Shown here: positions 2,657 to 22,131 of the stretch, one piece after another
Numbering within the stretch: the first letter of the stretch is position 1
Layout: every line of letters starts with the position of its first letter
From: Okeania sp.
GTDB taxonomy: Bacteria; Cyanobacteriota; Cyanobacteriia; Cyanobacteriales; Microcoleaceae
DNA length: 22,631 nucleotides
Direction of reading: 5' to 3'
NCBI RefSeq assembly: GCF_035285525.1
Contig: NZ_JAYKGW010000207.1
Span: 1-22,631 of the forward strand
Notes under the pieces: generated by a model
The model's input: the letters and a program-made list of their open reading frames with translations, nothing else
The model's database searches: none
Told to the model about the DNA's origin: nothing
Translations under genes and position numbers: made by a program

Positions 2657-5600
2657 ATGTTTAACAAACTTCCTTTAAAAACTGTTCTTATTGTCCCCTT
2701 TATCCTGCAAATTGTAACTGCTGTAGGATTAGTTGGATATTTTTCTTTTATCAATGGACGCCAATCAGTTGATACTTTAGCAGATAAGTTAACTTTGGAA
2801 ATTAGCACTCGTATCCAGCAACACATTTTAGATTATTTAGAGAGAACCTATCAGGGAGTAAAAATAATCAATGATGCTATTACCAGTGGTAACTTTGATG
2901 CTTACGACTTTAGAAAAATGCAGTTGTACTTTTGGCAAATCATTACAGAGCAGCAGCGGGAGAACAATCTTTTTCCTGATCGCAAACCGGAAGAATTCAA
3001 TCTTTTTTTTGGTAACGAACAGGGGGTGTTTGTTGGAGTCAAATATGATCCCGAATATAAAAGTATGATGTTGAGGACTCGAACTACAGCTACTCAAGGA
3101 TTCCGTGAAGCTTATCAGTTAGATGAGAATGGCGAAATAAGTAAATTCGTGAAAGCGAGAAAGTACGATCCGCGCATTCGTCCCTGGTATCAAAAAGCCA
3201 AAAAAGTAGGCTTACCTACATGGAGTCCTATTTATGCTGGTTTTTCTGAAGAGAATACATCTTTAGATATATCTGCTCTCAGACCTATTTTTGATGATAA
3301 TGGTGATTTCATCGGAGTATTAGCTAATGAAACTAGCTTAATAAAGATGACAGCATTCCTTAATAACTTAGAGATTAGTCCTAATGGCAAAAGTTTTATC
3401 ATGGAGCGATCGGGAAATATAATTGCTGGTTCCAAAATTCCTGAACCTTTTGTAATTACTAAAATTGATAGCGATCGAGAAATAGAACGCTTACACGCTA
3501 TGGATAGTGGTAATCCTATAGTCATTGCTACTGCAACTCATCTAGAAAAAACTTTTGGTAGTTTAGAAAAAATTAATCGCAGTCAGCAACTTAATTTTCA
3601 GATAAGTAAAAAGTGGTATTATGTTAGTGTGGTGCCAGTTAGAGACGGACGGGGTATTGATTGGTTAGTAGTTGTTGTAGTTCCCGAAACAGACTTTATG
3701 GAAAAAATCAACGCTAACACCAAAACTACTATTTTCTTGAGTATTACAGCTCTAACTGTCGCCATATTCTTTGGGATAGTTACTGCTTACTGGATTAGCA
3801 AACCAATATCACAAGTTAATTCTGCTGCCAAAAAAATCGCAGAAGGCAAATGGGAAAATCAACTTGATATTCGCCGTAATGATGAAGTAGGAGAACTTGC
3901 TCAGTCTTTTAACAGTATGGCAACTCAACTGAAAAACTCCTTTGATATCCTAGAAGCGAAAAATAAAGAACTGAAAAAATTAGACCGCCTCAAAGACGAA
4001 TTTTTAGCCAACACTTCCCATGAACTAAGCACTCCACTCAATGGCATTATTGGTATTGGTGAATTTCTTCTCGGAGATCCTGCCCAAAACTTCAATAGTA
4101 CCACCACTTCTAACTTAAACATGATTGTATCTAGCGCTCGTCGTCTTTCTAATTTAGTTAACGATATTCTCGACTTTTCTAAGATTAGATACAATAAACT
4201 AGAATTACAAATGAAAGCAGTTGATATTTTTGTGGTGGTAGAAACAGTAGTCACCTTAAATCTATTAGTCAGCAAAAATAAAAATCTACATTTAATCAAT
4301 ACTCTTCCCAGAAATTTACCACCAGTCTTTGCAGACGAAAACCGTTTACAACAAATTCTCTACAATTTAATTGGTAATGCTATCAAGTTTACTGACTCTG
4401 GTAAAATTGAAATTTTAGCAGCACTAATTACTAATAATTATATAAATCCTCCTACTCTAGTTTCCCCCTCAGAAGATTCCAGTCAAAATCAAAATATTCA
4501 GCCATCTCAGGAACTAATCATTACAGTTTCTGATACTGGTATTGGTATTCCCAGCGATAAACTAGACAGTATTTTTAAATCTTTTGAACAAGGAGAAGGT
4601 TCCATAGCCAGAAAATATGGTGGTACAGGTTTAGGATTAGCTATCACCAAACAATTAGTTGAACTTCATGGGGGTCGCATTTGGGTACAGTCTGAGGTTG
4701 GTGTTGGTTCTAGTTTTAGTTTTACTTTACCCATTTCCGAAAAATCTGTAGCCGATCCTCCAAATATTTTTGTTTCTAAAGTTAAGGAGACAGTAGAAAC
4801 ATCCCCAGATATTCAACCAGATGAAAATCATTTAGCAAATGGTGATTTCCATATTTTAGTTGTTGATGATGAACCGATAAATGTGCAAGTTTTAACTAAC
4901 CATTTGACCGCAAATCACTATCAAGTTACTCAAGCTTTAAATGGAAAAGAAGCTTTAGATGCTATAGCTAAACATGAGAATTTTGACCTAATTTTGTTAG
5001 ATGTAATGATGCCAAATATAAGTGGTTATGAAGTCTGCGCCCAAATTAGAGAAAAATATCCAACGGAGGCTTTACCTATTTTAATGTTAACTGCGAAAAA
5101 TCAAGTGGCTGATTTAGTGATGGGTTTTCAATTTGGCGCTAATGATTATTTAACTAAACCTTTTGCAAAAGATGAGTTATTAACTAGAATTAAAACTCAT
5201 ATTCAATTATCAAAAATTACTAATTCTTATGAACGTTTTGTGCCTCATGAATATGTGACATTACTCTCAAAAGAAAGTATTCTTAATGTGAAGTTAGGAG
5301 ATAGAGTCAGCAAAGAAATGGCTATTTTCTTTTCTGATATTCGTTATTTTACAACTATGTCAGAAAAGATGACTTCTCAAGAAACTTTTGCTTTTCTTAA
5401 TGGTTATTTAGAACAAGTTTGTCCAGAGATTAGAGACCGGAATGGTTTAATTATTAAGTTTATGGGAGATGGAATTATGGCAGTATTTCCTGATGGTAGT
5501 GATGATGCGGTTGATGCTGCTATTGCTCAATTAAAGAAGTTACAACAATATAATCGGAACTTGAAAGAAAAGGGTTTACCTGTAATTAAAATTGGCATAG

Positions 5601-6085
5601 GTATTCATTGGGGTAACATGATGGTGGGGATAGTGGGAGAGAAAGGTAGGATGTCTGGAGATGCAGTTTCTGATAATGTAAATTTGACGTCTCGTTTGGA
5701 AGGTTTAACTAAGTTTTATGGTGTTTCTTTATTAATTTCTGAGTCAGCTTTTAACTGTTTAAAAAATCCAGAAAAATATCAAATGAGGTTTTTAGATAGG
5801 GCATCGGTGAAGGGTAGAGATGAACCGATTAATGTTTATGAAGTGTTGGATGGTGAAGTAGATTTTATCCGAGAGTTAAAGTTAGAAACTCAAGGAGATT
5901 TTCAGCAGGGTTTAGACTATTATCGTTTAGGAGATTTAGTAGCAGCTAAAGTTTGTTTTGAGAAAGTATTGGTGGTTAATTGTGCAGATGAAACAGCTAA
6001 ACTTTATTTGGAAAGAATTGATGAGTTGATGGTCAATGGTATTCCCATAAATTGGAATGGAGTTTGGGCATTTACTCAGAAATAA
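2657..6085 (+). CDS. Hybrid sensor: Cache-like periplasmic domain, HAMP, HisKA/HATPase_c, REC, class III adenylate/guanylate cyclase, and a C-terminal TPR-like tail
   Basis: Two TM segments flank an extracytoplasmic domain of about 330 aa that carries the RPWYQKA Cache signature. HAMP: [15 protein letters not shown]...[12 protein letters not shown]-box: [15 protein letters not shown] boxes: [28 protein letters not shown]: ILVVDDEP...LLDVMMP...LTAK. Cyclase: [32 protein letters not shown]. Confidence 0.93.
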
Positions 6086-6463: not shown

Positions 6464-7109
6464 ATGACGAATTTACAAATAAAACTTCCCACAGATACAT
6501 GGGTTTCAGCTACTGGGAATGAATATCTCCAAACTATTGAAAATCCCATTTACACTAGAGCAAAATCTTATTATTATCAAGGAAAACTCAGAATAGAAAT
6601 ATCACCAGTAAGTTACGATCGCGCCAAGGATAATTCACTTATTGCTATAGCTCTTGGTATTTTCTGTAGCCTCAAAAATATTAGAAGTAAAAGTTTAACT
6701 AATTGTAGTTATAGAAAAACCGGACTTCAATAAGTACAACCAGATATTTCCTACTATATAGGTGATCATTCTAATATTATTCCTTGGGGAACTTCTATTG
6801 TAGATTTAGATAGATATCCATCCCCAGATTTAGTCATAGAAATAGCCAATATTTCACTGGCAAATAATAAAGGTGAAAAAAAGGTTAATCTATGAAGATT
6901 TAAAAGTCAAAGAATATTGGATAGTTGATGTTAAAAATGTAGATATTATTGCTTTGGCTATGGTTGATGGTGGCAGTAAAAAAATTAAAGAATCTCAAGT
7001 TTTATCAGGATTATTAATAAGTATTTTAAAAGAAGCTTTAGAACAGAGTCGAAGTATTAATCAAAATGAAGTTATTGCCTCCCTATTTTCTCAATTTCAA
7101 GAATCTTGA
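6464..7109 (+). pseudogene. Uma2-family (DUF820, PD-(D/E)xK-like) endonuclease gene, disrupted
   Basis: Three collinear pieces reconstruct a typical Uma2 protein (…YYYQGKLRIEISP…, VQPDISYY…PDLVIEIANIS…, KKRLIYEDLKVKEYWIVD…). There is an in-frame TAA at 6731-6733 and a frameshift in the A7 run at 6876-6882. Confidence 0.75.
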
Positions 7110-8147: not shown

Positions 8148-8624
8148 TTGAAAGTAAAAAAGCTGCATAAGTTCTTACAACTTAACCTCTTGGAACAACT
8201 CCTGCTAGTTAAGGCATTTCTTTTGCTTGCGGTAATTCGGGTAGGACTGAAATTCTTGCCTTTTCAGACTTTGTACCGCCTTCTAGCAAAAGTATTTCAG
8301 CCAACTGCAAAGTTGCAGATATCAGAATCGACTTATGCAGAAAAAGTAGTGTGGACAGTAAGAGTAGCTAGCCGCTATGTACGGGGTGTCAGATGTCTAG
8401 CTCAGGCTTTGGCTACTCAGGTATTATTGGAACAGCGCGGTTATAGCTCTAACCTTCGTATTGGTTTCACTAGAAATAAGGGTGGGCGGATGTCAGCCCA
8501 TGCTTGGGTGGAAAGTGAGGGGAGGGTGGTGATTGGTGATCTTAAGAATATGGCTGACTATATTCGTGTGCCACTTCAGGGAACAGAAAATCTTAAAAAG
8601 AAGGAGTGGAGATTATTATCCTAG
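8148..8624 (+). CDS. Lasso-peptide-type B2 protein (transglutaminase-fold cysteine protease, Transglut_core3-like), stand-alone
   Basis: 158 aa with a hydrophobic N-terminal helix (LLLVKAFLLLAVIRVGLKFLPF). Putative Cys-His-Asp triad: RC83LAQALA (codon 8394-8396), SAH118AWVE (8499-8501) and VVIGD131. The spacing (35 and 13 aa) is close to that of McjB-type leader peptidases. The start is TTG; there is no in-frame ATG near the N-terminus. Confidence 0.78.
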   Translation: MKVKKLHKFLQLNLLEQLLLVKAFLLLAVIRVGLKFLPFQTLYRLLAKVFQPTAKLQISESTYAEKVVWTVRVASRYVRGVRCLAQALATQVLLEQRGYSSNLRIGFTRNKGGRMSAHAWVESEGRVVIGDLKNMADYIRVPLQGTENLKKKEWRLLS

Positions 8625-8653: not shown

Positions 8654-8968
8654 TTGTTGTCTCTATCCACAATAGCCATTTTGATACTAAGTTATACTTC
8701 TGCTTATGCGACTCAAAATTTTACTCTTGAAGCATGGAAATTTGCTGGCCTTGGTCAAGGAGGAGTTGTTGAAGAAGAAGGGGATGATGAAGATCAGGTC
8801 TATATTTGTTTGAAAAATGGCAAACCCCTGAAAGTCTTAGGATTAGAAATGATTGACTCAGACGACATATCAGAAGAAGGTATAGTTTGTACTCCTGAGC
8901 CATCATCTATCTTCGGCTTGATAACATTAGGCTCTATTTTAGCTGGAGCTAAAATTTTACAAAAATAG
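8654..8968 (+). CDS. Small acidic secreted protein with a PEP-CTERM sorting signal
   Basis: The C-terminus TPEPSSIFGLITLGSILAGAKILQK shows PEP, a hydrophobic helix and a basic tail. The N-terminus LSLSTIAILILSYTSAYA is signal-peptide-like with an AxA site. The middle is acidic (EEEGDDEDQ). Only TTG starts are available (8654/8657) and there is no basic n-region, so the gene model is uncertain. Confidence 0.5.
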   Translation: MLSLSTIAILILSYTSAYATQNFTLEAWKFAGLGQGGVVEEEGDDEDQVYICLKNGKPLKVLGLEMIDSDDISEEGIVCTPEPSSIFGLITLGSILAGAKILQK

Positions 8969-9100
8969 GTTTTACCCATGAGCGCTATTGGTAGGGTGTG
9001 TTTGGCGTTCCGCAAAGCTCCGCTAACGGCTGTCGCTGATATGTAAAGCGGTAGCGTAACGCACCAAGACTCTATAGAGAGTGCCTTTATGTAAGTCCTG
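8967..9100 (-). mobile_element. Dispersed hairpin repeat, copy A (same family as 9878-9969 and 13544-13595, inverted orientation)
   Basis: ggtagggtgtgtt (8990-9002) and ccaagactctatagagagtgcctttatgtaagtcctg (9064-9100) match the reverse complement of copy B. A degenerate left terminus aggttttacccatga overlaps the preceding stop codon. Confidence 0.6.
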
Positions 9101-9138: not shown

Positions 9139-9828
9139 ATGTCTAGTCATGAAATAATGAATCCAAATTTGCCTTTGTGGTCTTTTCAGTTTAAACCCAA
9201 TTCTCAGTTGGGTGTAAAAACTCGCAAGGATTTAGAAATTCATCTGATTACTCGTGCTTTGAAGGATGAGGATTTTAAGCGAGAGTTGATTGCAAATCCG
9301 AAGGCTGTGATTGAAGAAGAATTAGAGACAAAGTTACCTGAAGACCTTGAGATTAAGGTACTTGAGGAAACGGAAGATACTATTTATATGGTGTTGCCTT
9401 GTAATCCTTATGAGGGAATGTCTGAGGAAGAGTTACAGGCTTCTTTAGGGATGACTTATGAGGATGTAGCTCAGTGGGTTTTGGAACAGCAAAAAAACAC
9501 CTTATTGGATGAAGAAAGTAGTGTAATCCTTTTGCTTCATATTTGGAAGGATCAAGATTATAAACAAAAACTAATACTTGACTCAAAAACGGTACTTGAA
9601 CAAAAATTTAATACCAATATATCAAAAAATATTACAATTAAGAGTCTTGAAGAAACTCCTCAGAAGCTTTTTATAGTCATACCTGAAATGGGTGATAAAT
9701 CAGTACCTCGTATGACTGAATGGTTTGATGATATCAAGTCTGAGCGAAAGCAACAGCCCTTATTTGAAAAAATTTCAGTAGGATACTGTGGTTCTTCTTT
9801 TGAAATGGGTTCTAGCTGTACAACATAA
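9139..9828 (+). CDS. lanA: RiPP precursor: two tandem NHLP (nitrile-hydratase-like leader peptide) domains plus a C-terminal Cys/Ser/Thr-rich core (class II lanthipeptide LanA candidate)
   Basis: NHLP repeat 1 (aa 28-90): TRKDLEIHLITRALKDEDFKRELIANPKAVIEEELETKLPEDLEIKVLEETEDTIYMVLPCNP. Repeat 2 (aa 124-185): …HIWKDQDYKQKLILDSKTVLEQKF…NITIKSLEETPQKLFIVIPE. The C-terminus is …KISVGYCGSSFEMGSSCTT. The gene lies directly upstream of lanM on the same strand. Confidence 0.85.
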   Translation: MSSHEIMNPNLPLWSFQFKPNSQLGVKTRKDLEIHLITRALKDEDFKRELIANPKAVIEEELETKLPEDLEIKVLEETEDTIYMVLPCNPYEGMSEEELQASLGMTYEDVAQWVLEQQKNTLLDEESSVILLLHIWKDQDYKQKLILDSKTVLEQKFNTNISKNITIKSLEETPQKLFIVIPEMGDKSVPRMTEWFDDIKSERKQQPLFEKISVGYCGSSFEMGSSCTT

Positions 9829-9877: not shown

Positions 9878-9969
9878 CAGGACTTACACGGGAGGCACTA
9901 TGTATAGAGTATTGGTCCCTTACGAGATACACTAACACACCCTACCAGTCGCGTTCATGCGTAAGTCCT
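9878..9969 (+). mobile_element. Dispersed hairpin repeat, copy B, between the precursor gene and lanM
   Basis: Termini are aggacttac (9879-9887) and gtaagtcct (9961-9969). The interior ggcactatgtatagagtattgg…aacacaccctacc is homologous to copy A (reverse complement) and copy C. Confidence 0.65.
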
Positions 9970-10021
9970 AATCAGTAACTCTGCATATCTAGATCAAGAA
10001 ATAGAGGACAGAACATACAGA

Positions 10022-13000
10022 ATGTTATTGAAAAAGTCTGTTTCTCTTATTTCTTTTATTGTATTATATTTCAAACAATTTAAGCTGATGTATGATCCTA
10101 AAACTATTCACAATAGTCTTATTGAAATAATAGAAAAATCAAGTACAATTACTGAACGTTTGAGTGATAAATTTATAACCGATGCTTCTGAAGAAAATTC
10201 TCAAATAATCTGTTCTAAAACTTATCAGTGGTGTGAAGTAGCAACTCAAGGAAACTGGGCAAACTTTAAGGTACATCTTGCTAATTATGGTCTTGATGAA
10301 AAAACAGCTTACCGTGCTTTCTGTTCTGTACATCTAGATAATAGTAATTACCTACCAGAATGGGCAATAATTCTAGATGAGTATCTTAAAATCATTAACT
10401 TATTGAAATTAAATACTTTAGGAACAGAAGATACTAAAAGTAATAGTTTTTTATACGATCAAGAACCTATTCCGTTTCAGGAAGTTTTGTTGCCATTAAT
10501 TGGGATAGCAAAGCAAAAATTAATATCTCGTCTTGAATGTAGATATGATTTACTGAATAATCAAGCCCATGTCAGCTTAGAGCGTAATCTTTTAAAACGT
10601 TTATCTGAGCTATGTTTGCCGTCGATGCAACTGGAGTTTTCAGTTTTTCGAGCTTGTCAACAATCTTCTGTTGTGACTCGTGTACTTAATGAGTCTACAA
10701 AACATTCTTGCTATCAAAATTTTATTCACAAGTTACTTAAAGGTCATTTATTAGTTTTATTACAAGAAAAACCTGTATTAGCTCGATTAATGGCGATTGC
10801 AACTCATTTGTGGATTGAGTCCACTATAGAGTTGATTACACGCTTAGATTCAGACTGGCATGAAATTAACAGAAAATTTCATCCCAATTTTGATATCAAG
10901 CAAGTTGTTGCTATACAATGTGGTTTGTCTGATTACCATTACAATGGACGTTCTGTGATTGCATTACATTTTGCATCAGGACTTAAACTGATCTACAAAC
11001 CTAAGAGTATCAGCTTAGAGGAAAAATATTTTAAGTTACTAGCATGGTTCAATGAGCAAAGATTTTACAGGAATTTTAAATTACTAAAAATATTAAATCG
11101 ATCAACTTATGGTTGGGTAGAATTAATAGAGAATTTACCATGTAAAAATCCGGAAGAAGCAAAACGTTATTATGAGCGTTCTGGTTCTTTACTGTGTTTA
11201 ACTTATGTTTTAAATATAACAGATTTACATAAAGAAAATATTATTGCCTGTGGCGAACATCCAGTTCTAATTGATTTAGAAACCCTTATGCATCCTTGGC
11301 CAAAAAAACTTGACAATATAGAAAATGAGAAAAATTCTGAATATATTGCTAAACGTCAAATGGGTTATTCTGTAATTCGCACTGGATTGTTACCTAGGTG
11401 GCAGTTAGGCTTGGAAAATCAAAAGTTTGACATAAGTGGATGGGGTAGCTTTGGTGAACAAAAAACATCGATTTCAACAGCTGTCGTTAATAATATTAAT
11501 ACGGATGCAATGGAAATTATATATGAAAATGAAATAAATACTGAAAGCCATAATAATCCGTTGTTAAACTATATATCTTTAAACATTAGTGAATTTGTTG
11601 AGGATATTATTAACGGATTTAGCGAAATGTATGTTTTTTTAATAAAAAACAAGCTAAGAATTTTGAGAGAAGAAGGTCTCTTAAAATGGTTTAAATCTGA
11701 AAGGACTCGATACATTTTTCGTTCGACAAAAATATATCAACTAATTTTAAAGACATTACTTGATCCAAAGCATCTGGAAAATGGTGCTACCTGGAGTATG
11801 CAATTAGATATTATTGCTAGAGTGATGTTTTTGCCTGGGAACTCACCGACACTACATCCTTTGGTAAAAGAAGAAAGAAAGGCGTTGGAGAAATTAGACA
11901 TTCCTCTATTCTTTACTAATTCAGGAACAAAAACTTTATTTTTCTCAGACAATAAAGTTTTTGATAATTTTTTTTCTCAAAGTGGGGAAAATTTAGTTAT
12001 TGAGTATTTGAATAGTTTAAATAATGATGATTTGGAGAAACAAGTTGATTTAATTAAAGGTTCATTGTACTCAAGAATAACCGAAAATGCTCATGCAACA
12101 ATACAGTATTTTGGCAATCATAACATCTCATTCAAAAGTTCTACTAATATCCTAAGTCATAATATTTGTTTAAGTAAAAATTTTTCTATTGCTGAAGATA
12201 TTGAAAAGAGAGCCATTTACTCCATAGATAAAAGTAATGTAACCTGGATATCGCCTCAATATAGTTTTGATATTGAAAGTTTTCAAATTGCTCCTTTAAG
12301 TTTGGGAATGTATGATGGAATTTCTGGTTTAACAGTTTTTTTGTCAGCTTTTAAAAAAAATATTGGAGAAACAAAATTTGATTATCTTGTAAGAATAAAT
12401 ATAGAGAATTTACATAGAAAAATTAAACAATTAACATCTACAAAAATTTCAGAAACAATTAATAGTGATGTTTGGTTAAGATATATTTCAACTCTCTATT
12501 CAATAGTTACTGTTAACAATTTGCTAGATATATCACTTTTCCTAGATGATGCTTACAAGATCGTTGTGGACATTCCGCCTAATATAATATTGGCTGACCG
12601 AAAATTTGATATTTTATCAGGTTCATCACACACAATTTTGGTATTATTAGCTTTATATAGTCAATCTGTCGATCAAGAAGTTTTACATAAAGCCATACTT
12701 TCTGGTAACCATCTCCTTAATAACCGTGTCGTCAGTGAATCAGGTCATCGAACCTGGGCAACCTTAGATGGAAAACTTCTCACAGGTTTCTCTCATGGTG
12801 CAGCCGGAATAGCCTACGCTCTACTTCGCCTCTATAAAGCCACTGGTGAAACCCGCTTTAAAGAAGCAGCAGAAGAGGCGATCGCCTACGAACGCAGTGT
12901 CTTTATTCCCGAACTGAACAACTGGCCAGACTTTAGACAACCCCAAACCAAAGATAATCCTAAATGTATGTGTTCATGGTGTCATGGTGCCCCTGGGATT

Positions 13001-13366
13001 GGTTTAGCTAGAGTTGCTACCTTAGACATTCTCGATACCCCAGAAATTCGCCAAGACATAGAAGCAGCCATCACCACTACCCTAAACTATGGACTCTCAG
13101 ATATCGATCATCTATGCTGTGGCAACATGGGACGAGTAGAATTTCTCTTCACTGCCGGGCGTAAACTAAACCGACCCGAATTAGTAGATGCAGCTATGAA
13201 ACTTGCTTCACAAGTGGTTGCCCGTGCTGAATACAAAGGACATTATGGCTATGGTCCGATTCTTGATTTTCACCCCGGTTTCTTCCAAGGTGCGGCAGGA
13301 ATAGGCTACCAATTACTTAGATTGGCTTACCCAGACCAACTACCGTCAGTGCTGCTATGGGAATAA
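10022..13366 (+). CDS. lanM: Class II lanthipeptide synthetase LanM, ProcM-like CCG subgroup
   Basis: Dehydratase (DUF4135) motifs: GRSVIALHFASGLKLIYKPKS, DLHKENIIACGEHPVLIDLE, SVIRTGLLPRW, ERTRYIFRSTKIY, LDIPLFF. LanC-like cyclase motifs: SHGAAGIAYAL, SWCHGAPGIG, and LCCGNMGR (CCG at 13115-13123 in place of CHG). An alternative start is M23 at 10088. Confidence 0.95.
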   Translation: MLLKKSVSLISFIVLYFKQFKLMYDPKTIHNSLIEIIEKSSTITERLSDKFITDASEENSQIICSKTYQWCEVATQGNWANFKVHLANYGLDEKTAYRAFCSVHLDNSNYLPEWAIILDEYLKIINLLKLNTLGTEDTKSNSFLYDQEPIPFQEVLLPLIGIAKQKLISRLECRYDLLNNQAHVSLERNLLKRLSELCLPSMQLEFSVFRACQQSSVVTRVLNESTKHSCYQNFIHKLLKGHLLVLLQEKPVLARLMAIATHLWIESTIELITRLDSDWHEINRKFHPNFDIKQVVAIQCGLSDYHYNGRSVIALHFASGLKLIYKPKSISLEEKYFKLLAWFNEQRFYRNFKLLKILNRSTYGWVELIENLPCKNPEEAKRYYERSGSLLCLTYVLNITDLHKENIIACGEHPVLIDLETLMHPWPKKLDNIENEKNSEYIAKRQMGYSVIRTGLLPRWQLGLENQKFDISGWGSFGEQKTSISTAVVNNINTDAMEIIYENEINTESHNNPLLNYISLNISEFVEDIINGFSEMYVFLIKNKLRILREEGLLKWFKSERTRYIFRSTKIYQLILKTLLDPKHLENGATWSMQLDIIARVMFLPGNSPTLHPLVKEERKALEKLDIPLFFTNSGTKTLFFSDNKVFDNFFSQSGENLVIEYLNSLNNDDLEKQVDLIKGSLYSRITENAHATIQYFGNHNISFKSSTNILSHNICLSKNFSIAEDIEKRAIYSIDKSNVTWISPQYSFDIESFQIAPLSLGMYDGISGLTVFLSAFKKNIGETKFDYLVRINIENLHRKIKQLTSTKISETINSDVWLRYISTLYSIVTVNNLLDISLFLDDAYKIVVDIPPNIILADRKFDILSGSSHTILVLLALYSQSVDQEVLHKAILSGNHLLNNRVVSESGHRTWATLDGKLLTGFSHGAAGIAYALLRLYKATGETRFKEAAEEAIAYERSVFIPELNNWPDFRQPQTKDNPKCMCSWCHGAPGIGLARVATLDILDTPEIRQDIEAAITTTLNYGLSDIDHLCCGNMGRVEFLFTAGRKLNRPELVDAAMKLASQVVARAEYKGHYGYGPILDFHPGFFQGAAGIGYQLLRLAYPDQLPSVLLWE

Positions 13367-13831: not shown

Positions 13832-15058
13832 ATGCAATGCTGCATTAATTATAGGTACAACAGTATGATGACTATTCCCGTTACTCAATCCCAACTATTG
13901 ACTAAAGAATCAGCCCGAATCACTCGCCCTGAAATCCAGCTACTGCTGTGTTGCACCAGAACTCAGATAGACCCGACGACAGAAAATCGTATTAAGGGGT
14001 TATTACAACAAGATATCGACTGGACTTACCTCATCCAGACCTCTATCTGTCACAGTGTCATGCCTCTCCTGTACCGAAGTTTAAATTCTACCTGTCCAGA
14101 GGCAGTTTCAAAATCTATCTTGTCTCAGCTTCGGAATTTTTATCATACTAATGCACAGCGTAACCTATTTCTGACGAGTGAGCTAGTCAATTTGTTAAAT
14201 CTTTTCCAAGACAACGGCATTCCCGCTATCCCTTTTAAGGGACTATCCCTCGCAGTTTCAGCTTACGGCAACTTAGTATTAAGGCAGTTTAGCGACCTCG
14301 ATATCCTAGTTCATAAACAAGATATAAATAGAGCCAAACAACTTCTGACCTCTCATAAATATCAACTGACCAAAGAACTATTTTGGGAAAGTCACTTTAT
14401 TAGTGAAGGAGGCAGAGTTAATATAGACCTTCACCAAGCAATTACACCAAAATACTTCTCCTTTCCTGTTGATTTCAATGAGTTGTGGAAACGTCTTCAA
14501 CCAGTTTCCTTGGTTAATAGAACTATATTTACTTTTTCCTCGGAAGATTCACTTTTAATCCTCTGCGTATATATAGCCAAAGACTGTTGGGACAAGCGGG
14601 AACGGCTAATTCAAGTTTGTGATATTGCCGAACTGCTTCGTCATCAAAAAATAGATTGGGAACTACTAATAGAACAAGCGACTAAACTAGGTATTACACG
14701 AATAGTATTACTGGGTCTTTTGCTAGCAAATCAACTTTTGGGAACAGCACTTCCAGAAGAAATTTTATCCAAAATACAAGCAGAACCAACGGTTAAATTA
14801 CTCGCTACTCAGGTATGCGAGTGGCTTTTCCATAAAACTGATTCTCCAAATGTAGGTTTTGAAAGAAAGCTTTTCTACTTGAAAGTTAGAGAACGTCTAG
14901 AGGATATCATCCCTCTATTAGATTATTGGATAACCCCAAGTCAAACAGACCGAGATTTTTTTTTATTGCCTAATTCACTCTCTTTTCTTTACTATTTAGT
15001 TCGGCAAATTCGATTAGTTGGAAAATACGGATTGAGAATAAGGTGTTGGCAAAAATAG
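13832..15058 (+). CDS. Nucleotidyltransferase family protein (NTP_transf_5 / PF14907-like)
   Basis: Signature region: IPFKGLSLAVSAYGNLVLRQFSDLDILVHKQDINRAKQLL (KG…Y…R…DLDILV). The protein is about 400 aa and all-alpha toward the C-terminus. The more likely start is MMTIPV at 13865. Confidence 0.72.
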   Translation: MQCCINYRYNSMMTIPVTQSQLLTKESARITRPEIQLLLCCTRTQIDPTTENRIKGLLQQDIDWTYLIQTSICHSVMPLLYRSLNSTCPEAVSKSILSQLRNFYHTNAQRNLFLTSELVNLLNLFQDNGIPAIPFKGLSLAVSAYGNLVLRQFSDLDILVHKQDINRAKQLLTSHKYQLTKELFWESHFISEGGRVNIDLHQAITPKYFSFPVDFNELWKRLQPVSLVNRTIFTFSSEDSLLILCVYIAKDCWDKRERLIQVCDIAELLRHQKIDWELLIEQATKLGITRIVLLGLLLANQLLGTALPEEILSKIQAEPTVKLLATQVCEWLFHKTDSPNVGFERKLFYLKVRERLEDIIPLLDYWITPSQTDRDFFLLPNSLSFLYYLVRQIRLVGKYGLRIRCWQK

Positions 15059-15181: not shown

Positions 15182-15491
15182 CTATTCGGCCTCTTGAATT
15201 AAGATTTGCTGTTTAGCCCATTGATTGAATACTTGAGCCAACTCAGCAAAATCAATTCTCGTCATAATTCGCCGAAATGTAGAATTCCGTTGGAAAACTT
15301 AAAGGTGATAGCTCTAGTTCTTGATTTAAGGCCTGGTGATGACGACGAGCAAAATTTTCTAATGCACAATAAGAGAAACAACCGCTCATTGTACCCATAA
15401 TCACTAATAGTAAGACTAACCATAATGGATAACGTCTTCCTCTAGCAGCTCGAAAATCAGGTAACTGGGCTAATATTTGTAACAAGTTCAT
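15182..15491 (-). pseudogene. ISAs1-family transposase, N-terminal fragment only (DDE_Tnp_1_assoc region), frameshifted and truncated
   Basis: MNLLQILAQLPDFRAARGRRYPLWLVLLLVIMGTMSGCFSYCALENFARRHHQAL matches the ISAs1/H-repeat N-terminal domain. After a frameshift near 15285 the alternative frame reads STFRRIMTRIDFAELAQVFNQWAKQQ and stops at 15182-15184. No DDE catalytic domain follows. Confidence 0.8.
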
Positions 15492-15684: not shown

Positions 15685-18600
15685 TTACATTGGTAAAATA
15701 ATCGCAAGTGTTGTACCTTCTCCAACTACAGATTCACAAATAATCTCACCACTGTGTTTCTCAACAATAATTTGGTAGGCGATCGCCATTCCTAAACCTG
15801 TTCCTTTACCCACTCCTTTAGTGGTAAACCCTTGTTCAAAAATTCGGTCTCTAGTCTCTGGTTTCATTCCCTGACCATTGTCTTCAATTTCAATCTGTAT
15901 TTGATTTTCATCTAGTTGAGAAGTGCGAATTTTAATTTGATTTGGTTTCTCCTGAATCTCAGCATAAGTTTTACCAAGATTAGCGTCATCAAAAGCATCA
16001 ATCGCATTTGCCAAAATATTCATAAATACCTGATTTAACTGACCAGGAAAACAGTTAATTTCTGGCACTTCCTCATACTGTTTCATAATTTCTATTGACG
16101 GACGTTTATCGTCAGCTTTAGTGCGATGCTTCAGGAGTAATAATGTACTCTCAATCCCATCATGGATATTGAATGCTACTTTATGTTCCTGGTCTTTGCG
16201 GGAAAATATTCTCAAACTGCTGCTGATATTTCTCATTTGCTCGACTCCCACATTCATCGACTTGAGAACGTTAGGGAAGTCTGCTCGTAAATATTCCAAA
16301 TCTATCTCTTTAGCATGATTCGCCAGAACTTCCGTAGAACTATTCTGCTCATACAGAGCCAAATGCTCTAATAAATCAGATAAGTTTTCTTGAGCTATTT
16401 GCACATTGCCAGCAATAAACCCCAAAGGATTATTGATTTCATGGGCAATACCAGACATTAAATTACCTAATGCTGACATTTTTTCACTTTGCACCATTTG
16501 CAATTGGGTTTTTTGTAACTCTTGAAGAGTTTTTTCTAAAGCTTCAGATTTTTCTCGGAGGGCAGTTTCTGTAGCTTTGAGCTGACTAATATCCCGCATG
16601 GTAGTCGAAAAATATTCTGGCACTCCCTCAGCAGATTTGTGAGCAATAATAACTTGAGAAACTAGGATTTCTCGTCCTGTTGAATCTATAACTGCTGTTT
16701 CTCCAAACCAAGTTCCATCACGAGTAGCGATAGGAATGCCTTCATTGAAAATGATTTCATTTGCCCACTGGGGATGGTTTTCTGTGAGTTTAAATGAGTT
16801 CCCCTCAGAATGTAGTTCTGGTCGTAGTTTTTTAAATTGAGCATTCATCCATAATACCCTGCATTGAGTATCGACAATACCAACATAGTCAGAAGTCATT
16901 TCTAAAATAGCAATGAGACGTTTTTGTTCTTGCTCTAGTTGTATGCGCTCGGTAATATCCTCGTAGCTGCCTAACATTCCGTATACTGCTCCATTTTCAT
17001 CACACAATGGAATTTTGTTTGTGTCTAGCCACCTGATTGTACCATCACTCTGTCTTTGGGTTTCAATAATGTGTAATTCAGGTTGGTTAGATTCCATCAC
17101 CCGGCGATCGCATTCTCGAAAGAAGTCAGCCTCTTCTTTAGTACAAGGGATGTCGTAATCATTTTTACCAATCAGAGCTTCGGGAGAACTAAAATTTACC
17201 ATTTTAGCAAGTTTTTGGTTGCATCCTAAAAAAGTCGAGTTTCTATCTTTCCAGAAAACGTATTGGGGAATGGTATCAATAATTTGTCTGAGTAAGTTTT
17301 CTGATTTTTTGACTTGTTGTAGTGATAATTCCGATTTCTGATGCAGTTGCGCATTTTTAATAGAGATGGCAGCTTGATTAGAAATAAAGTTGAGCATGAG
17401 AATACGCTCTGGGGTAAATACATCACGAGTCAGTTGATTTTGTAAATAGAGAATGCCTATCAATTTTCCCTGATTTAACATTGGTAAACACAAAATACTT
17501 TGGGGTTGATTTTGCTGTAGATAGTTATCAATAATTGGTAAGTCGGTGTCAATATTATTAATAACTAATACTTCTCTAGTATTTTTAACATATTGAATGA
17601 GTTGAACTGGTAAGTTAGTATTATCTGTGAGGAGTTTGGTACAGAGTTGGGTGCTATCTGTAGTCGCAACAGCTCTGAGATGCCAAACATGATTTTCATC
17701 CCTGATGAAAATGAGGCAGCGATCGCCCCCAGAATTTTCCAGAATAATCTGACTTAGTTGATAGAGAAGTTCGTTGAGTTGGATGACTTCAGAAATAGCT
17801 TGAGAAGATTTCAAGACGGTGGCTAAATCAAGGGTAGTATTGATAATTGTTTGAGACTGATGATTCAGGAGCTTAGACGAGTGACTTGAAAGTTTAGGTA
17901 CAGCAATATTTGTCAGAGTATCCCATAATTTAGGAGATTGGGTTCCTGCTTGGAAAATAGGTTGTAGTAATTGGGGATATCGTTTTTCTAAGTCGTCAGT
18001 TTTCGCTTTTGCCCCCCAACGAGCGTAGCAATAGTAAGCCTCTTGCATATAGCTTGCTGCAACTTTTTCTTTACCCCAGTTTAGGTAAAATTTGGCTGTT
18101 AGTTCATTAGCAAGTGCTTCTTCTTGAAGATATTCGTTTTCTTTGGCTCCAACAATGGCGCGATCGTATAGTTCAATAGCTTCTGATTTTTGATTAAGAA
18201 CTCGATATCGTTCAGCTTCTACTAAGTTAAATTTATGCAAATAATTCATGGGAGCATGATTTTTCCATATCTTCATCTTTTCCTGATTAGTTTGAACTCT
18301 ATCAAGAATTGTTTCTTGTTCCGACACAGAAACTTCTGGATAAATTGCTAGTCGTACTAAAGAATCATAAAAATAGAACAGAGAAACCACAACCAATCCA
18401 GTTACTCCTCCTAGAGACTCTTCTGCAATTTTGGCATTATTTAATGCTTGAGAGTAATCATTGAATAAATAACTAAGTAAAAGTTTATTAATAAATAGAT
18501 GATTAATAGTATATAAATCTTGAGCTTGTTGATGGAGAGGTAGCATTTTCTCCTCGTTGTATGCTACCCCAATTAAACTATGCAAATGTTCAGACTTTCC

Positions 18601-21600
18601 TTGTAAATTTAAAGTAGTTTGTTGGTAAATACAACACCAATTTAAAGCCACTTGCTGCTTAACTCTCCTTAAGGAATCAATATAAACTGTCTGGTCTTTT
18701 TCCAAAATATCTAAGTTTTTTCCTAACCAAAAAGAATGAGTCAAATAAATGTAAGCACAATAACCAACATATTCAAAATCTCCAGTTTCCAGTCCAGCAG
18801 AATAACCCTCAAGAGCAGGTGATAAAGTTTCTCTAATATGAGCTTGCCAATGAGCTACATGGGCATTAACAACAGTCAATATCTTGGCTTTCAGTTCTTG
18901 AGCGTTAAATTTTGATAAAACTTTTAAGGCTAATTTTCCAAATTCGGAACCAGTATCAATATCACCAAAAGAACCAGAAAGAAGTAAGCCATAAATACTG
19001 TAACCGTAAGCAGATATTGATGTATTACCCTCTCTCAAGGATAATTTTACCATTTCAAAAGCGATCAATGGAACCATAACTTGATAGCTCTGAAAAGCAG
19101 CAGGAAGAGTTTGCATTAAAATTTTCATAGCTGCAACGTTTTCGGGAACGCTCATTATTGGCAAGTCAATCAAATCAGGAATAGATTTCCCCTTCAAATT
19201 CTCAACTACTTGGTCAAAACCTTTCTGAATATCAGAAGGTTGTGGTTGCTCTGGAAAGTTAACGCCTAATTCTTGTAGAATTAAACCTGCGATTTTAATT
19301 GCTTCTAGCTGTTGACTTTGGACAATGCAAGCAGTTATTTTAATTTCATAAACGGGTACTTTGTCGAGTAAAGTTTGGGTATTTTGGAGAATAATTTCTG
19401 TAAATTCCTGCATCTGCTCAAAATTTCCATTTAAGTAAGCAACTTCAGTAACTAAATTATATAATTCCAGAGTTAATTTATATTCACTGTTCCAACTATC
19501 TTCACTGAGTAACTCCAACCCAATTAATAAATATTCAATGGCTGCACTGTAAGCAGTTGCCACTTTGGCTTTTTTCCCAGCTATGAAATTTAATTGAGCT
19601 AGTTGACATTCCTCTCTGATATCATCAATTAATGATCTACCAATATTTAAGTGATTGATAAAATCAAAAATATATTCTGCTTGTTCCTCTTTGGGAATAT
19701 TACTTAACAACCCTCGACCTATTTGTAAATGAGTTCTTTGTTTTCGGTCTTCAGGAATCAAAGAATAAGCTGCTTGTTGCACTCTATCGTGCAAAAAACG
19801 ATAACTCACTGCCACTGTCTGAGTTTGGCTTTCATACCCACTACCCTGAAAAAACTTATAATTTTCAGAAATAGGTACAATCAACCCCTCTTGTAACGCT
19901 CCCCAAATATCTGCTGCCACCTCTGCTTCTGGTTTGTCACACACCACCGCTAACGTTTTTAAATTAAACTGATTTCCAATACAAGCTGCTAACTTTAATA
20001 CTTCCTGTGTTCCTACTACCAATTTTTGCAACCGCCCCGCCACAAACTCCACCACATCATCTGTAATCACTGCATCACGCACCTCCAACAAATTACATTC
20101 CCAATATCCTAACTTCAAATTAAACTTAATCAGTTCATCTTCATGCAACCCTTGCAAAAACTGCGTAGTAAAAAATGGGTTGCCTTTGGTTTTTTGATAC
20201 ACTAACTCTGTCAAAGGTTGAGCTAATTTTTGACTACATTTCAAAGTATCTGCTATTAATTGATTGATATGATTAATTGCTAACGGTGGCAAAGTAATTG
20301 TAGAAACAACTGCCTGCTCTTCTTTTAATTCTGCTAAAGTTAACATCAATGGATGAGCTGGATACACTTCATTATCTCGATATGCTCCCAACAGTAATAA
20401 ATATCTAGTTTCTCCACCACTCATTAATACTTTCATCAAATTTAACGATGCTGAATCTGCCCATTGTAAGTCATCTAAAAATATAACTAATGGATGTTCA
20501 ACACTCGTAAATACACCGATAAATTTTTGAAATAGTAAGTTAAAACGATTTTGAGCAGCATTGCCAGAAAGTTCGGGAACAGGTGGTTGACTACCGATAA
20601 TATTTTCTAGTTCTGGTACTACCTCAATGATAACTTGAGCGTTATCTCCCAAAGCGTTGAGAATTTCAGTTTTCCAAGTGGTTAATTCTGTATCTGACTC
20701 ACTCAGTAATTGTTTCATCAAATCTCGGAAAGCTTGCACAAACGCAGAGAACGGAATATTGCGATTAAACTGGTCAAACTTACCTTTGATAAAATATCCA
20801 TTTTGCCGAACTATAGGTTTATGAACTTCATTAATTACAGCAGTTTTGCCAATCCCAGAAAATCCTGCCACTAGAAGAAGACGGGGAGTGTGGGAGAGGT
20901 GGGAGGATGTTTTGACTCGAAGAAACCGGGTTTCTGTTTCTGGGTTCTCTTTTGGTAACTCCCCCCTTTCAAAGGGGGGTTGGGGGGGATTACTAACTCT
21001 ATCAAAAGCATCCAATAAAGCTTGAACTTCAGGTTCCCGTCCATAGAGTTTTTCAGGAATCATAAAGCGATCGCTCCTATCCCTGTCCCCCAAATCAAAT
21101 GATATAATTTCTCCTGTAGTTTCTAACTGTTGCCGACATTTCTCTAAATCGTGCTTCAAACCCAAAGCACTCTGATAACGGTCTTCCGCATTTTTCGCCA
21201 TTAATTTCAGTACAATGTCGATGAGGATTTGAGGTATTTCTACACTCCCCTCCTGGGAGGGGTTAGGGGTGGGTTGACTCTGTAGGGACGTTGGAAACAA
21301 AAATGCGAACGTCCCTACTTCCTGTTCCCTAGTCCCTACTTCCTGTTCCCTAGTCCCTACTTGCGGTTCCCTAGTCCCTACTTGCGGTTCCCTAGTCTCT
21401 ACTTCCTGCTCCCTATTTCCTAATACAGTTGGTGTTTTAGCAATATGACAATGAACTAACTCCATCGGATCGCTGCTTTCAAAAGGCAACTTTCCAGTCA
21501 GGAGTTCAAAAAATGTGACACCAAGAGAATAAAAGTCACTGCGATAGTCAATACCTCGATTCATCCGTCCGGTTTGCTCTGGAGAAATGTAAGCTAGAGT

Positions 21601-22131
21601 TCCTTCCAGAATATTCGGACTAATCAACTGTTGTTGTTCTCTAGGCAGTAGAGTAGAAATGCTAAAGTCAATGAGTTGAACTTGTTTAGTTTGCGGATGG
21701 ATGAGAATATTACTAGGCTTAATATCTTTGTGAATGACACACTGTTGAGTCAGATATTGGAGAGCTTCTGTCAGTTGAATAGCAATATTGAGGAAATTGC
21801 TGAGACTAGGTTCTGATTTTGGCCAATAATCAGACAAAGCGATCGCTCCTGAATCTGGCATGATTAGAGCATAGCTATTGCCATAGCGTTCTAGGGCTAG
21901 AGGTTTAACAATAGTTGGATGTTCCAGATGACGAGTAATGATATATTGGTTGCGGAATTGGACTAATTCATGGAAACTGGGGTGAGGATTCCGTAATACT
22001 TTGATAATTACTGATTTCTGGTCCCAGTTTCCTTGACCACGATAGACCAGAGTGCGTGTTCCTTGGTATAAATTTTCCCTGACATAGTAGTTGGGAAGGT
22101 TAAACATAATATTATTATTCATGGTTTTCAT
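15685..22131 (-). CDS. HstK-type multidomain kinase: Ser/Thr protein kinase, AAA/STAND-like ATPase, TPR-like region, GAF, two PAS, HisKA/HATPase_c
   Basis: STK motifs: VIIKVL, HKDIKPSN, DFS, LAYISPEQ, DRYQSA. P-loop: VAGFSGIGKT. GAF: …DRCLIFIRDE…LCLPMLNQGKLIGILYLQNQ. PAS regions are present. H-box: GIAHEINNPLGF. G-boxes: DNGQGM, GKGTGLGMAI. Confidence 0.95.
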   Translation of the reverse strand: MKTMNNNIMFNLPNYYVRENLYQGTRTLVYRGQGNWDQKSVIIKVLRNPHPSFHELVQFRNQYIITRHLEHPTIVKPLALERYGNSYALIMPDSGAIALSDYWPKSEPSLSNFLNIAIQLTEALQYLTQQCVIHKDIKPSNILIHPQTKQVQLIDFSISTLLPREQQQLISPNILEGTLAYISPEQTGRMNRGIDYRSDFYSLGVTFFELLTGKLPFESSDPMELVHCHIAKTPTVLGNREQEVETREPQVGTREPQVGTREQEVGTREQEVGTFAFLFPTSLQSQPTPNPSQEGSVEIPQILIDIVLKLMAKNAEDRYQSALGLKHDLEKCRQQLETTGEIISFDLGDRDRSDRFMIPEKLYGREPEVQALLDAFDRVSNPPQPPFERGELPKENPETETRFLRVKTSSHLSHTPRLLLVAGFSGIGKTAVINEVHKPIVRQNGYFIKGKFDQFNRNIPFSAFVQAFRDLMKQLLSESDTELTTWKTEILNALGDNAQVIIEVVPELENIIGSQPPVPELSGNAAQNRFNLLFQKFIGVFTSVEHPLVIFLDDLQWADSASLNLMKVLMSGGETRYLLLLGAYRDNEVYPAHPLMLTLAELKEEQAVVSTITLPPLAINHINQLIADTLKCSQKLAQPLTELVYQKTKGNPFFTTQFLQGLHEDELIKFNLKLGYWECNLLEVRDAVITDDVVEFVAGRLQKLVVGTQEVLKLAACIGNQFNLKTLAVVCDKPEAEVAADIWGALQEGLIVPISENYKFFQGSGYESQTQTVAVSYRFLHDRVQQAAYSLIPEDRKQRTHLQIGRGLLSNIPKEEQAEYIFDFINHLNIGRSLIDDIREECQLAQLNFIAGKKAKVATAYSAAIEYLLIGLELLSEDSWNSEYKLTLELYNLVTEVAYLNGNFEQMQEFTEIILQNTQTLLDKVPVYEIKITACIVQSQQLEAIKIAGLILQELGVNFPEQPQPSDIQKGFDQVVENLKGKSIPDLIDLPIMSVPENVAAMKILMQTLPAAFQSYQVMVPLIAFEMVKLSLREGNTSISAYGYSIYGLLLSGSFGDIDTGSEFGKLALKVLSKFNAQELKAKILTVVNAHVAHWQAHIRETLSPALEGYSAGLETGDFEYVGYCAYIYLTHSFWLGKNLDILEKDQTVYIDSLRRVKQQVALNWCCIYQQTTLNLQGKSEHLHSLIGVAYNEEKMLPLHQQAQDLYTINHLFINKLLLSYLFNDYSQALNNAKIAEESLGGVTGLVVVSLFYFYDSLVRLAIYPEVSVSEQETILDRVQTNQEKMKIWKNHAPMNYLHKFNLVEAERYRVLNQKSEAIELYDRAIVGAKENEYLQEEALANELTAKFYLNWGKEKVAASYMQEAYYCYARWGAKAKTDDLEKRYPQLLQPIFQAGTQSPKLWDTLTNIAVPKLSSHSSKLLNHQSQTIINTTLDLATVLKSSQAISEVIQLNELLYQLSQIILENSGGDRCLIFIRDENHVWHLRAVATTDSTQLCTKLLTDNTNLPVQLIQYVKNTREVLVINNIDTDLPIIDNYLQQNQPQSILCLPMLNQGKLIGILYLQNQLTRDVFTPERILMLNFISNQAAISIKNAQLHQKSELSLQQVKKSENLLRQIIDTIPQYVFWKDRNSTFLGCNQKLAKMVNFSSPEALIGKNDYDIPCTKEEADFFRECDRRVMESNQPELHIIETQRQSDGTIRWLDTNKIPLCDENGAVYGMLGSYEDITERIQLEQEQKRLIAILEMTSDYVGIVDTQCRVLWMNAQFKKLRPELHSEGNSFKLTENHPQWANEIIFNEGIPIATRDGTWFGETAVIDSTGREILVSQVIIAHKSAEGVPEYFSTTMRDISQLKATETALREKSEALEKTLQELQKTQLQMVQSEKMSALGNLMSGIAHEINNPLGFIAGNVQIAQENLSDLLEHLALYEQNSSTEVLANHAKEIDLEYLRADFPNVLKSMNVGVEQMRNISSSLRIFSRKDQEHKVAFNIHDGIESTLLLLKHRTKADDKRPSIEIMKQYEEVPEINCFPGQLNQVFMNILANAIDAFDDANLGKTYAEIQEKPNQIKIRTSQLDENQIQIEIEDNGQGMKPETRDRIFEQGFTTKGVGKGTGLGMAIAYQIIVEKHSGEIICESVVGEGTTLAIILPM
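20919..20991. repeat. Dispersed-repeat DNA embedded in-frame in the kinase CDS (linker before the P-loop)
   Basis: The segment gaagaaaccgggtttctgtttctgggttc…cccccctttcaaaggggggttgggggggatt encodes NPPQPPFERGELPKENPETETRFLRVK. The agaaaccgggtttctgggttc motif is the same as the unit of the intergenic tandem repeat at 2353-2463. Confidence 0.75.
21252..21318. repeat. Composite dispersed repeat plus perfect hairpin embedded in-frame in the kinase catalytic domain
   Basis: The 35-nt stretch at 21252-21286 (ctgggaggggttaggggtgggttgactctgtaggg) recurs at 22357-22391 in intergenic DNA with two mismatches. There is an 11-bp perfect IR: gtagggacgtt (21282-21292) and aacgtccctac (21308-21318). Confidence 0.8.
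21311..21415. repeat. 21-bp tandem repeat, five copies, in-frame in the kinase domain (encodes REQEVGT/REPQVGT heptads)
   Basis: Units lie at 21311, 21332, 21353, 21374 and 21395 (gtccctacttcctgttcccta, with variants ttgcgg and gtctct). Confidence 0.9.

Follow-up and report, generated by a model that had tools for sequence, protein, structure and literature searches.

Introduction

The leaders of NHLP-type precursors to peptides that are made by ribosomes and modified after translation (RiPPs) have recently been shown to be folded, protein-like domains that are bound unlike short leaders (PMC10858898, PMC12537861). In the solved examples, a tri-helical bundle and two beta strands precede a flexible region (PMC10858898), and in a single-domain system the class II lanthipeptide synthetase (LanM) DprM binds the hydrophobic nucleus of the bundle as well as two Glu residues that lie in the acidic C-terminal region (PMC12537861). 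The subject of the present work is an NHLP precursor gene in a contig of an Okeania sp. metagenome-assembled genome (MAG); the 22,631 nucleotides (nt) of this contig, the whole stretch of DNA that was analysed, are referred to below as the window. The gene (9139-9828, forward strand (+); 229 amino acids (aa) plus stop; annotated as P0001) encodes two NHLP leader domains in tandem and stands between genes for a lasso-type protease and a LanM. The family to which it belongs is large, conserved and apparently undescribed.

The closest described relatives are the single-domain NHLP systems DprE/DprM and OspA/OspM, both of which have the same domain fold, a TIGR03793 match, a LanM with three Cys ligands, an acidic EEL motif after the fold and a hypervariable C-terminal core. 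The Okeania precursor differs from DprE and OspA in having two domains, a conserved N-terminal motif and an inter-domain helix, and in lacking a Gly-Gly (GG) site; the surrounding locus differs in containing a lasso-type B2 protease and a PsmN-like enzyme, with no C39 transporter found.

The prochlorosin precursor ProcA has a single leader of the Nif11 type, ~65-80 aa long, with a GG site cut by an ATP-binding cassette transporter that contains a peptidase (PCAT), whereas the present leader is a tandem NHLP leader of ~215 aa without GG. The prochlorosins (ProcA/ProcM) and other cyanobacterial Nif11/NHLP combinatorial systems likewise join a conserved long leader to hypervariable cores; further likenesses to ProcA/ProcM are that several precursor genes per LanM are possible and that the LanM belongs to the CCG type. 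For ProcM, the comparison draws in part on PMC12537861.

For the tandem leaders themselves, the nearest literature precedent found is that of Delftia and Acidovorax, in which pairs of NHLP-Burk (TIGR03795) precursors are fused into single polypeptides (Haft et al. 2010, PMC2887384). These fusions also carry two leader units related to nitrile hydratase (NHase) per polypeptide. They are, however, two complete precursors, each with leader and core, in thiazole/oxazole-modified microcin (TOMM) clusters (PMC2887384), whereas here the first copy has no core and is now a conserved leader module in a LanM cluster. Nostolysamide was discarded as a precedent, its leader being of the Nif11 type. PF27793, which is listed for all homologues, was rejected as a dedicated two-domain family, as it is the Pfam version of RNP_Burkhold.

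For the neighbouring enzymes, the comparison is with the pseudomycoidin genes psmB2-psmN-psmD (PMC6993621), which encode a transglutaminase-fold B2 protease, an ANT(2'')-like NTP-transferase and an ATP-binding cassette (ABC) exporter. PsmN, an uncharacterised NTP-transferase encoded beside psmB2, attaches hexose to a lasso-peptide phospho-Ser (PMC6993621). The Okeania locus differs in that no lasso cyclase, B1 protein or RiPP recognition element (RRE), or HPr-like kinase was found in it, and in that the substrate is an NHLP-led lanthipeptide precursor. In a 2023 review of RiPP leader proteases, transglutaminase-like proteases are assigned to lasso peptides only, with an RRE required, and NHLP/Nif11 lanthipeptides are cut at GG by PCATs (PMC10885120).

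The locus departs from the described form in its doubled leader domain with extra conserved elements, in the absence of a GG site or C39 transporter, and in a lasso-type protease for which no RRE was found, together with a PsmN-like enzyme. No description of tandem NHLP leaders or of a B2/precursor/LanM cassette was found in the searchable literature, a search that leaves subscription-only papers outside and is not proof of novelty; the literature on PF13471 and PF14907 consisted of lasso or general mining papers only.

Two NHLP leader domains in one precursor

The whole 229-aa protein scored 109.9 bits against the NCBIfam model TIGR03793 (leader_NHLP; curated cutoff 50.9) over two matched stretches, and by model score and predicted fold it is a member of the NHLP family. 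The original prediction, which proposed two tandem NHLP domains in this reading frame, gave the right coordinates and residue numbers, and each half of the protein did match the model when scanned separately: aa 1-104 at 80 bits (E 8.3e-23, positions 1-73 of the 77 in the model) and aa 105-229 at 37.1 bits (E 2.2e-9, positions 10-62). Domain 2 alone is under the curated cutoff, yet far past chance. It scored 48 bits (E 6e-15) against an independent single-domain hidden Markov model (HMM), and the second halves of family members matched TIGR03793 at E <= 1e-3 in 65 of 65 cases (best E 3.5e-20).

The two domains also resemble each other. They are 35% identical by BLASTP over 54 residues without gaps (E 7e-12), and their Smith-Waterman score of 110 compares with 28.6 +/- 5.3 for 2000 shuffles (z = 15.2). 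When family profiles of domain 1 and domain 2 were aligned with hhalign, the probability was 99.8% (E 6.7e-28). Both copies belong to one long NHLP type, and their alignment needs no gaps; the head-to-tail duplication of NHLP modules that had been suggested stands.

The alpha subunit of NHase has sequence similarity to both precursor domains, and a PDB profile search showed that it too carries two internal copies of an NHLP-like unit (1v29_A, ~66-119 and ~139-200); the domain 2 profile aligns to the first of these copies and the domain 1 profile to the second. The precursor itself falls well outside the NHase alpha family (TIGR01323, 50.2 bits against a cutoff of 249.85) and lacks CxLCSC. Inheritance of the domain pair from the A-B repeats of NHase alpha was judged less likely, because both domains are of the long C-terminal-repeat type, align gaplessly and resemble NHase less than they resemble each other. 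On sequence, a later doubling of the leader unit seems likelier than inheritance of an NHase arrangement.

The leader is ~215 aa long and modular, with an N-terminal motif, domain 1 and its acidic end, a helix, domain 2 and a tail, and is followed by a short core. The N-terminal motif NPNLPLWSFQFKPNSQLGVK (aa 8-27; 9160-9219, +) consists of residues that are at least 90% conserved and predicted disordered, and is a candidate enzyme-docking peptide. In domain 1 (aa 28-101; 9220-9441, +), Leu replaces the Trp of the AWxD motif. The end of this domain reads G93-M94-S95EEELQASLG104-M105, and because the match of aa 1-104 reaches model position 73 of 77, the SEEELQA stretch aligns with the C-terminal leader-end region of TIGR03793. 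SEEELQASLG (aa 95-104; 9421-9450, +), which is acidic and predicted helical, is thus the retained terminus of the first copy with GG changed to G-M, as had been proposed, and its position corresponds to the acidic region bound by the LanM DprM (PMC12537861). The nearly invariant inter-domain helix MTYEDVAQWVLEQQKNTLL (aa 105-123; 9451-9507, +; top-residue fraction 0.88) leads into domain 2 (aa 124-185; 9508-9693, +), which varies more than domain 1. The leader tail (aa 186-215; 9694-9783, +), hypervariable across the family, ends ..KISVG and precedes the predicted core peptide YCGSSFEMGSSCTT (9784-9825, +; 2 Cys, 4 Ser and 2 Thr), whose exact cleavage site is uncertain.

The NCBI start of P0001 is a TTG at residue 24 (window position 9208), which gives a protein of 206 aa. 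The homologues favour the ATG at 9139, because the NCBI start would remove PNLPLWS[YF]Q, a motif that is conserved throughout the family.

An AlphaFold2 (AF2) model of the precursor, run with a 65-sequence alignment, predicted the NHLP fold of a tri-helical bundle plus beta-hairpin twice. The two helix-helix-helix-strand-strand units span residues 29-85 (helices 29-42, 44-52 and 54-62; strands 73-78 and 81-85) and 125-180 (helices 125-137, 139-147 and 149-157; strands 168-173 and 176-180), have predicted local distance difference test (pLDDT) scores of 80-92 and are joined by a helical linker that includes a helix at 107-118. Residues 1-22 (pLDDT < 50) and 190-229 were predicted to be disordered. 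The best PDB matches in Foldseek, 8tb1 (top) and 9cjx, are nuclear magnetic resonance (NMR) structures of NHLP (proteusin) precursors.

A family with one frozen and one variable domain

A protein search gave 172 relatives, the best 120 of which underlie the family figures. These are nearly all 200-280 aa long and, along most of the query, share 52-70% identity with it, and those that are named are cyanobacterial. The two-domain architecture and an almost invariant linker recur in at least 120 cyanobacterial cluster representatives from many genera and metagenomes. Residues 8-127 are nearly invariant (top-residue fraction 0.78-0.88), a zone in which PNLPLWS[YF]Q is followed by NHLP domain 1, the remnant G-x-SEEEL-x-A-x-LG of the leader terminus and the helix TYEDVAQWVLEQQRN. 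Nowhere is the protein more constrained than in domain 1 with this remnant (mean top-residue fraction 0.82-0.88); G104, once the first Gly of a GG pair, does not vary, and M105 hardly does. Conservation is moderate in domain 2 (0.56), and the final ~45 residues, rich in Cys, Ser, Thr, Gly and Pro, are hypervariable (0.23); the columns of C217 and C227 are at least 90% Cys across the family. The tail of P0001 is shared with P0002, P0003 and P0006.

Over 14 complete loci, the mean p-distance was 0.22 for the N-terminal module (N-module), 0.34 for the B2-like protease, 0.48 for LanM, 0.50 for the NTP_transf_5 enzyme and 0.59 for domain 2; the N-module evolves more slowly than any neighbouring cassette enzyme.

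Some family members and their loci show further elaborations. P0004 (Microcystis, L005/L006), P0030 and P0135 have a C-terminal Peptidase_S74 domain directly after a short ..GGCCITNP core. Peptidase_S74 is a self-cleaving intramolecular chaperone of phage tail spikes, and such precursors therefore combine a double leader with a self-cleaving follower. The same Microcystis cluster contains an extra methyltransferase and an ankyrin-repeat protein. In Nostochopsis (L009, 9983-12548), three tandem two-domain precursor genes with different cores stand ahead of one LanM gene, and the core of the middle precursor has no Cys (..GPISNNGPVIPPGSHRPQPSPSPFIP).

Tandem NHLP leaders in other precursors

Tandem NHLP leaders of two to four copies recur in other precursors. 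A profile search of 1.84 billion representatives gave 3802 matches (55 at E <= 1e-30), and the best 150 of these were scanned with a single-domain HMM built from 23 short single-domain matches. Two domains were found in 110, four in 4 and one in 36, and the CxLCSC metal site of NHase in none of the 150. No frequency of tandem leaders can be derived from these counts, because a two-domain query biases the list toward two-domain proteins. The premise that NHLP precursors normally have one leader domain holds for the characterised ones and was otherwise overstated, forms with two to four domains being common among the best representatives.

Many of the tandem proteins outside the family end in a canonical ELEAVAGG followed by a core, and one precursor of this type adjoins a LanM gene. 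P0131 (406 aa, L019), P0145, P0161 and P0168 have four tandem domains, apparently alternating between short and long units, and terminate in GG, after which comes a Gly/Tyr-rich or Arg/Trp-rich core; P0131 adjoins radical S-adenosylmethionine (SAM)/SPASM genes. The search for further multi-domain NHLP proteins and their partner enzymes that the original prediction suggested thus led to LanM and to radical-SAM genes.

A LanM, a lasso-type protease and a PsmN-like enzyme in one cassette

The gene context was compared over 28 loci, namely the window, another ten distinct loci from genomes and 17 from metagenomes. Scanning gave 9 loci in genomes and 17 in metagenomes, and because these scans depend on exact peptide patterns, the locus counts are minimum figures.

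A LanM gene lies downstream of the precursor gene in every sufficiently long locus. The window LanM (1114 aa; 10022-13366, +) matches TIGR03897 at 884 bits together with PF13575 and PF05147, so that an enzyme with dehydratase (DUF4135) and LanC-like cyclase domains adjoins the precursor, and its zinc site has three Cys ligands (SWCHG...LCCG) and is of the CCG type. With two Cys and six Ser/Thr, YCGSSFEMGSSCTT would be able to form (methyl)lanthionine. A hypervariable core accordingly stands beside a modifying enzyme, and the NHase metal site is absent. Judged from the sequence of its synthetase, the system is a class II lanthipeptide system. It shares with strict, polytheonamide-type proteusins only the leader type, the radical-SAM epimerase or other tailoring of those systems being absent; no radical-SAM gene was present among the window open reading frames (ORFs).

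Upstream of the precursor gene, the window encodes a lasso-B2-like cysteine protease of the transglutaminase fold (158 aa; 8148-8624, +; NF033537 lasso_biosyn_B2, 105 bits against a cutoff of 33; PF13471, 77.5 bits). A B2-like gene is directly upstream of the precursor gene in 27 of the 28 loci, and in the 28th the DNA extends only 139 nt upstream. Among 11 B2-like orthologues, neither the Cys (CL..ALA.Q) nor the His (AHAW.E) varies. Of a lasso system, which comprises B2, B1/RRE and an Asn-synthetase-like cyclase, only B2 is represented: neither a lasso cyclase nor PqqD was found among the window ORFs or in the related loci, and a search for PqqD/RRE among the small ORFs of the window, L004 and L005 gave none.

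Downstream of LanM lies the gene for a PsmN-like enzyme of the NTP_transf_5 nucleotidyltransferase fold (408 aa; 13832-15058, +; PF14907, 221.6 bits), and an NTP_transf_5 gene is within 10 kb of the precursor gene in ten of the 11 genome loci. G137, D155 and D157 are invariant. The nearest Foldseek matches of its AF2 model (pLDDT 85.9) are LnuA, ANT(2'')-Ia and FKRP. LnuA and ANT(2'') are O-nucleotidylyltransferases, and FKRP is a phospho-alditol transferase. The ANT(2'') entries matched by the model, 5cfs and 4xje, are the templates reported for PsmN (PMC6993621). Searches of the PDB by sequence with the NTP_transf_5 and B2-like proteins returned nothing useful. Conservation and model point to an active Pol-beta-fold transferase with a likely tailoring role in the cassette.

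Some NTP_transf_5 relatives are fused to glycosyl- or methyltransferases. One close relative, in a Nitrospirae MAG (L037, 6176-9578), is encoded with a B2-like protein, a small ORF and PqqD and without LanM; another (L038) is accompanied by an ABC transporter, PqqD and many sugar-modification genes. From these two contexts, the set of protease, nucleotidyltransferase and exporter seems to be a module that combines with various partners. An ABC transporter of ~610 aa is often present in the related loci and is missing in the window and in Floridanema; no C39 domain was among the Pfam matches listed for these cassette transporters.

Leader removal

The usual GG/C39 route of leader removal was not apparent in the window: domain 1 ends SLG-M, the leader-core junction reads ISVG-Y and there is no ABC transporter. 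The family instead shows a junction motif of three hydrophobic residues, Gly or Ala, and a small residue (hhh[GA]x, typically NMPMVIG-S), which was found in 76 of 119 members against 11.5 in shuffled tails. The window protein has a looser form of it, KISVG-Y, which gives the predicted core YCGSSFEMGSSCTT, and cleavage of the window protein would occur near V214-G215, a placement made from sequence that leaves the site uncertain. The invariant Cys and His of the B2-like enzyme, the enriched junction motif and the fact that no GG/C39 route was found suggest that this enzyme is the leader peptidase of the cassette.

Proposed assignment of leader modules to enzymes

The functional claims rest on sequence, predicted structure and gene context. 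On these grounds P0001 is probably, though by no means certainly, a genuine class II lanthipeptide precursor with a modular doubled leader, whose modules are assigned to different enzymes and which is removed by the B2-like protease. The three-Cys LanM would dehydrate Ser/Thr and form thioether rings in the C-terminal core, probably with domain 2, the domain nearer the core, as its main docking site. For the RRE-less lasso-B2-like protease encoded just upstream, the docking platform would be the invariant N-terminal module, acting in cis, and this protease, not a GG-specific C39 transporter domain, would cut the leader at the junction of three hydrophobic residues and Gly/Ala. The PsmN-like nucleotidyltransferase may add a further modification.

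The division of labour between the modules was addressed by partial Mantel tests on pairwise distances over the 14 complete loci. The N-module correlated with the B2-like protease given LanM (r 0.57, p 0.0002) and not with LanM given the B2-like protease (r -0.02), and domain 2 correlated with LanM given the B2-like protease (r 0.63, p 0.0002) and hardly with the B2-like protease given LanM (r 0.07). This double dissociation, with the N-module following the protease and domain 2 following LanM, is suggestive only, because the same result would arise from recombination within the conserved precursor gene. The bipartite enzyme recognition that had been put forward for the double leader gains from it in part: the pattern fits, and gene order could also yield it.

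Several observations weigh against the favoured assignment. The Mantel result rests on 14 loci and is confounded by the order of the genes and modules (protease, N-module, domain 2, LanM). The two elements that LanM uses in single-domain systems, the bundle and the acidic EEL motif, are kept together in domain 1 and not in domain 2, and LanM could therefore bind domain 1 instead. With a predicted template modelling (pTM) score of 0.42, the AF2 model leaves the relative orientation of the two domains undefined. For the protease, the putative third catalytic residue, Asp in the window protein, is Gly in the orthologues; known lasso B2 proteases need an RRE partner (PMC10885120), and none was found here; and the window junction KISVGY fits the family motif loosely.

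The strongest rival, which we consider unlikely though far from negligible, is that both NHLP domains serve LanM only, through avidity or as a spacer that positions the core, and that the B2-like protease reads the junction alone, its apparent pairing with the N-module being a product of linkage and recombination. The order B2, N-module, domain 2, LanM is constant, and linkage alone predicts the Mantel pattern; domain 1 retains both DprM determinants, and a GG-type double-NHLP precursor (P0165) stands beside a LanM gene on a short contig on which no B2-like gene was called. This account does not readily explain why the B2-like gene adjoins the precursor gene, with a near-constant short gap, in 27 of the 28 loci, or why the partial correlation between the N-module and LanM is nil. 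The N-module is also more conserved than LanM, which is hard to explain by co-adaptation to the faster-evolving LanM alone.

The assignment of modules to enzymes may be extended, tentatively, to a lasso/lanthipeptide hybrid, which would be a minority outcome. In such a hybrid, the folded, nearly invariant NHLP module, present in cis on the substrate, would replace the separate RRE (B1) and recruit or activate B2 to remove the leader of a lanthipeptide, and the LanM kinase would supply phospho-Ser/Thr for the PsmN-like transferase. Tandem NHLP domains (two to four copies) would then be a general means of per-enzyme docking, with a protein-like domain for every enzyme in a RiPP pathway.

Removal of the leader in two steps is a good deal less probable. 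SLG-M between the domains would be cleaved first, releasing domain 1 as a pro-domain or chaperone-like unit, and domain 2 would then act as an ordinary leader. The site is homologous to the original leader cleavage site, with G104 invariant and M105 nearly so, and two-step leader proteolysis is known in class II lanthipeptides (PMC10885120). The -2 position, however, is Leu and not the Gly needed by C39 domains, and the whole of 91-123 is conserved and predicted helical, which suits a structural or binding role equally well.

That domain 1 might be a functionless, decaying relic of the duplication or fusion, as the original prediction allowed, is very improbable. The loss of GG and the replacement of the AWxD Trp by Leu would fit decay, but over at least 120 representatives no segment of the family is more conserved than domain 1 together with its remnant terminus (0.82-0.88 against 0.56 for domain 2), and it evolves more slowly than all neighbouring enzymes (p-distance 0.22 against 0.34-0.50). 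A sequencing or assembly artefact or frameshift joining two adjacent precursor genes is scarcely credible, its sole basis being that adjacent precursor genes occur in such clusters, since no evidence for it was found and the same architecture and invariant linker are present in independent genomes and metagenomes of many genera.

The natural doubled-NHLP family offers a system for asking how leader modules pair with enzymes, in which one NHLP copy is held constant and the other can change along with the synthetase. It points to leader removal from class II lanthipeptides by a non-C39 (non-GG) peptidase and to RRE-independent action of a lasso-type B2 protease, neither of which is in the 2023 review (PMC10885120). 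The family also supplies at least 100 different hypervariable cores. Precursor-length filters (~80-110 aa) and GG-based cleavage prediction would probably mishandle such precursors.

Other features of the window

Between the protease and precursor genes, the window contains a small ORF (104 aa; 8654-8968, +) with a weak PEP-CTERM-like C-terminus (TIGR02595, 18 bits; PF07589, 15 bits). In a Microcystaceae MAG (L003/L017), a homologue that is 56% identical stands in the corresponding place, and the ORF is missing from most loci. One copy of a sequence resembling a miniature inverted-repeat transposable element (MITE) lies upstream of the precursor gene (8966-9086, +) and a second, inverted copy downstream (9893-9970, -). 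The element is ~95-135 nt long and has its own terminal inverted repeats (AGGxxTTAC...GTAAGTCCT). With the small ORF and the MITE-like element, the gap between protease and precursor is 514 nt, against roughly 60-90 nt in other loci. An Rfam scan of the window gave no match.

A split remnant of a Uma2-family endonuclease gene (6464-6733 and 6873-7109, +) lies upstream of the cassette and an ISAs1 transposase fragment (15252-15491, -) downstream; together with the MITE-like copies, these suggest that the cassette is in a mobile-element-rich patch. The cassette is flanked by two very large multi-domain signalling proteins, one of 2148 aa with Ser/Thr kinase-AAA-GAF-PAS-histidine kinase architecture (15685-22131, -) and one of 1142 aa with Cache-HAMP-histidine kinase-receiver-adenylate cyclase architecture (2657-6085, +).

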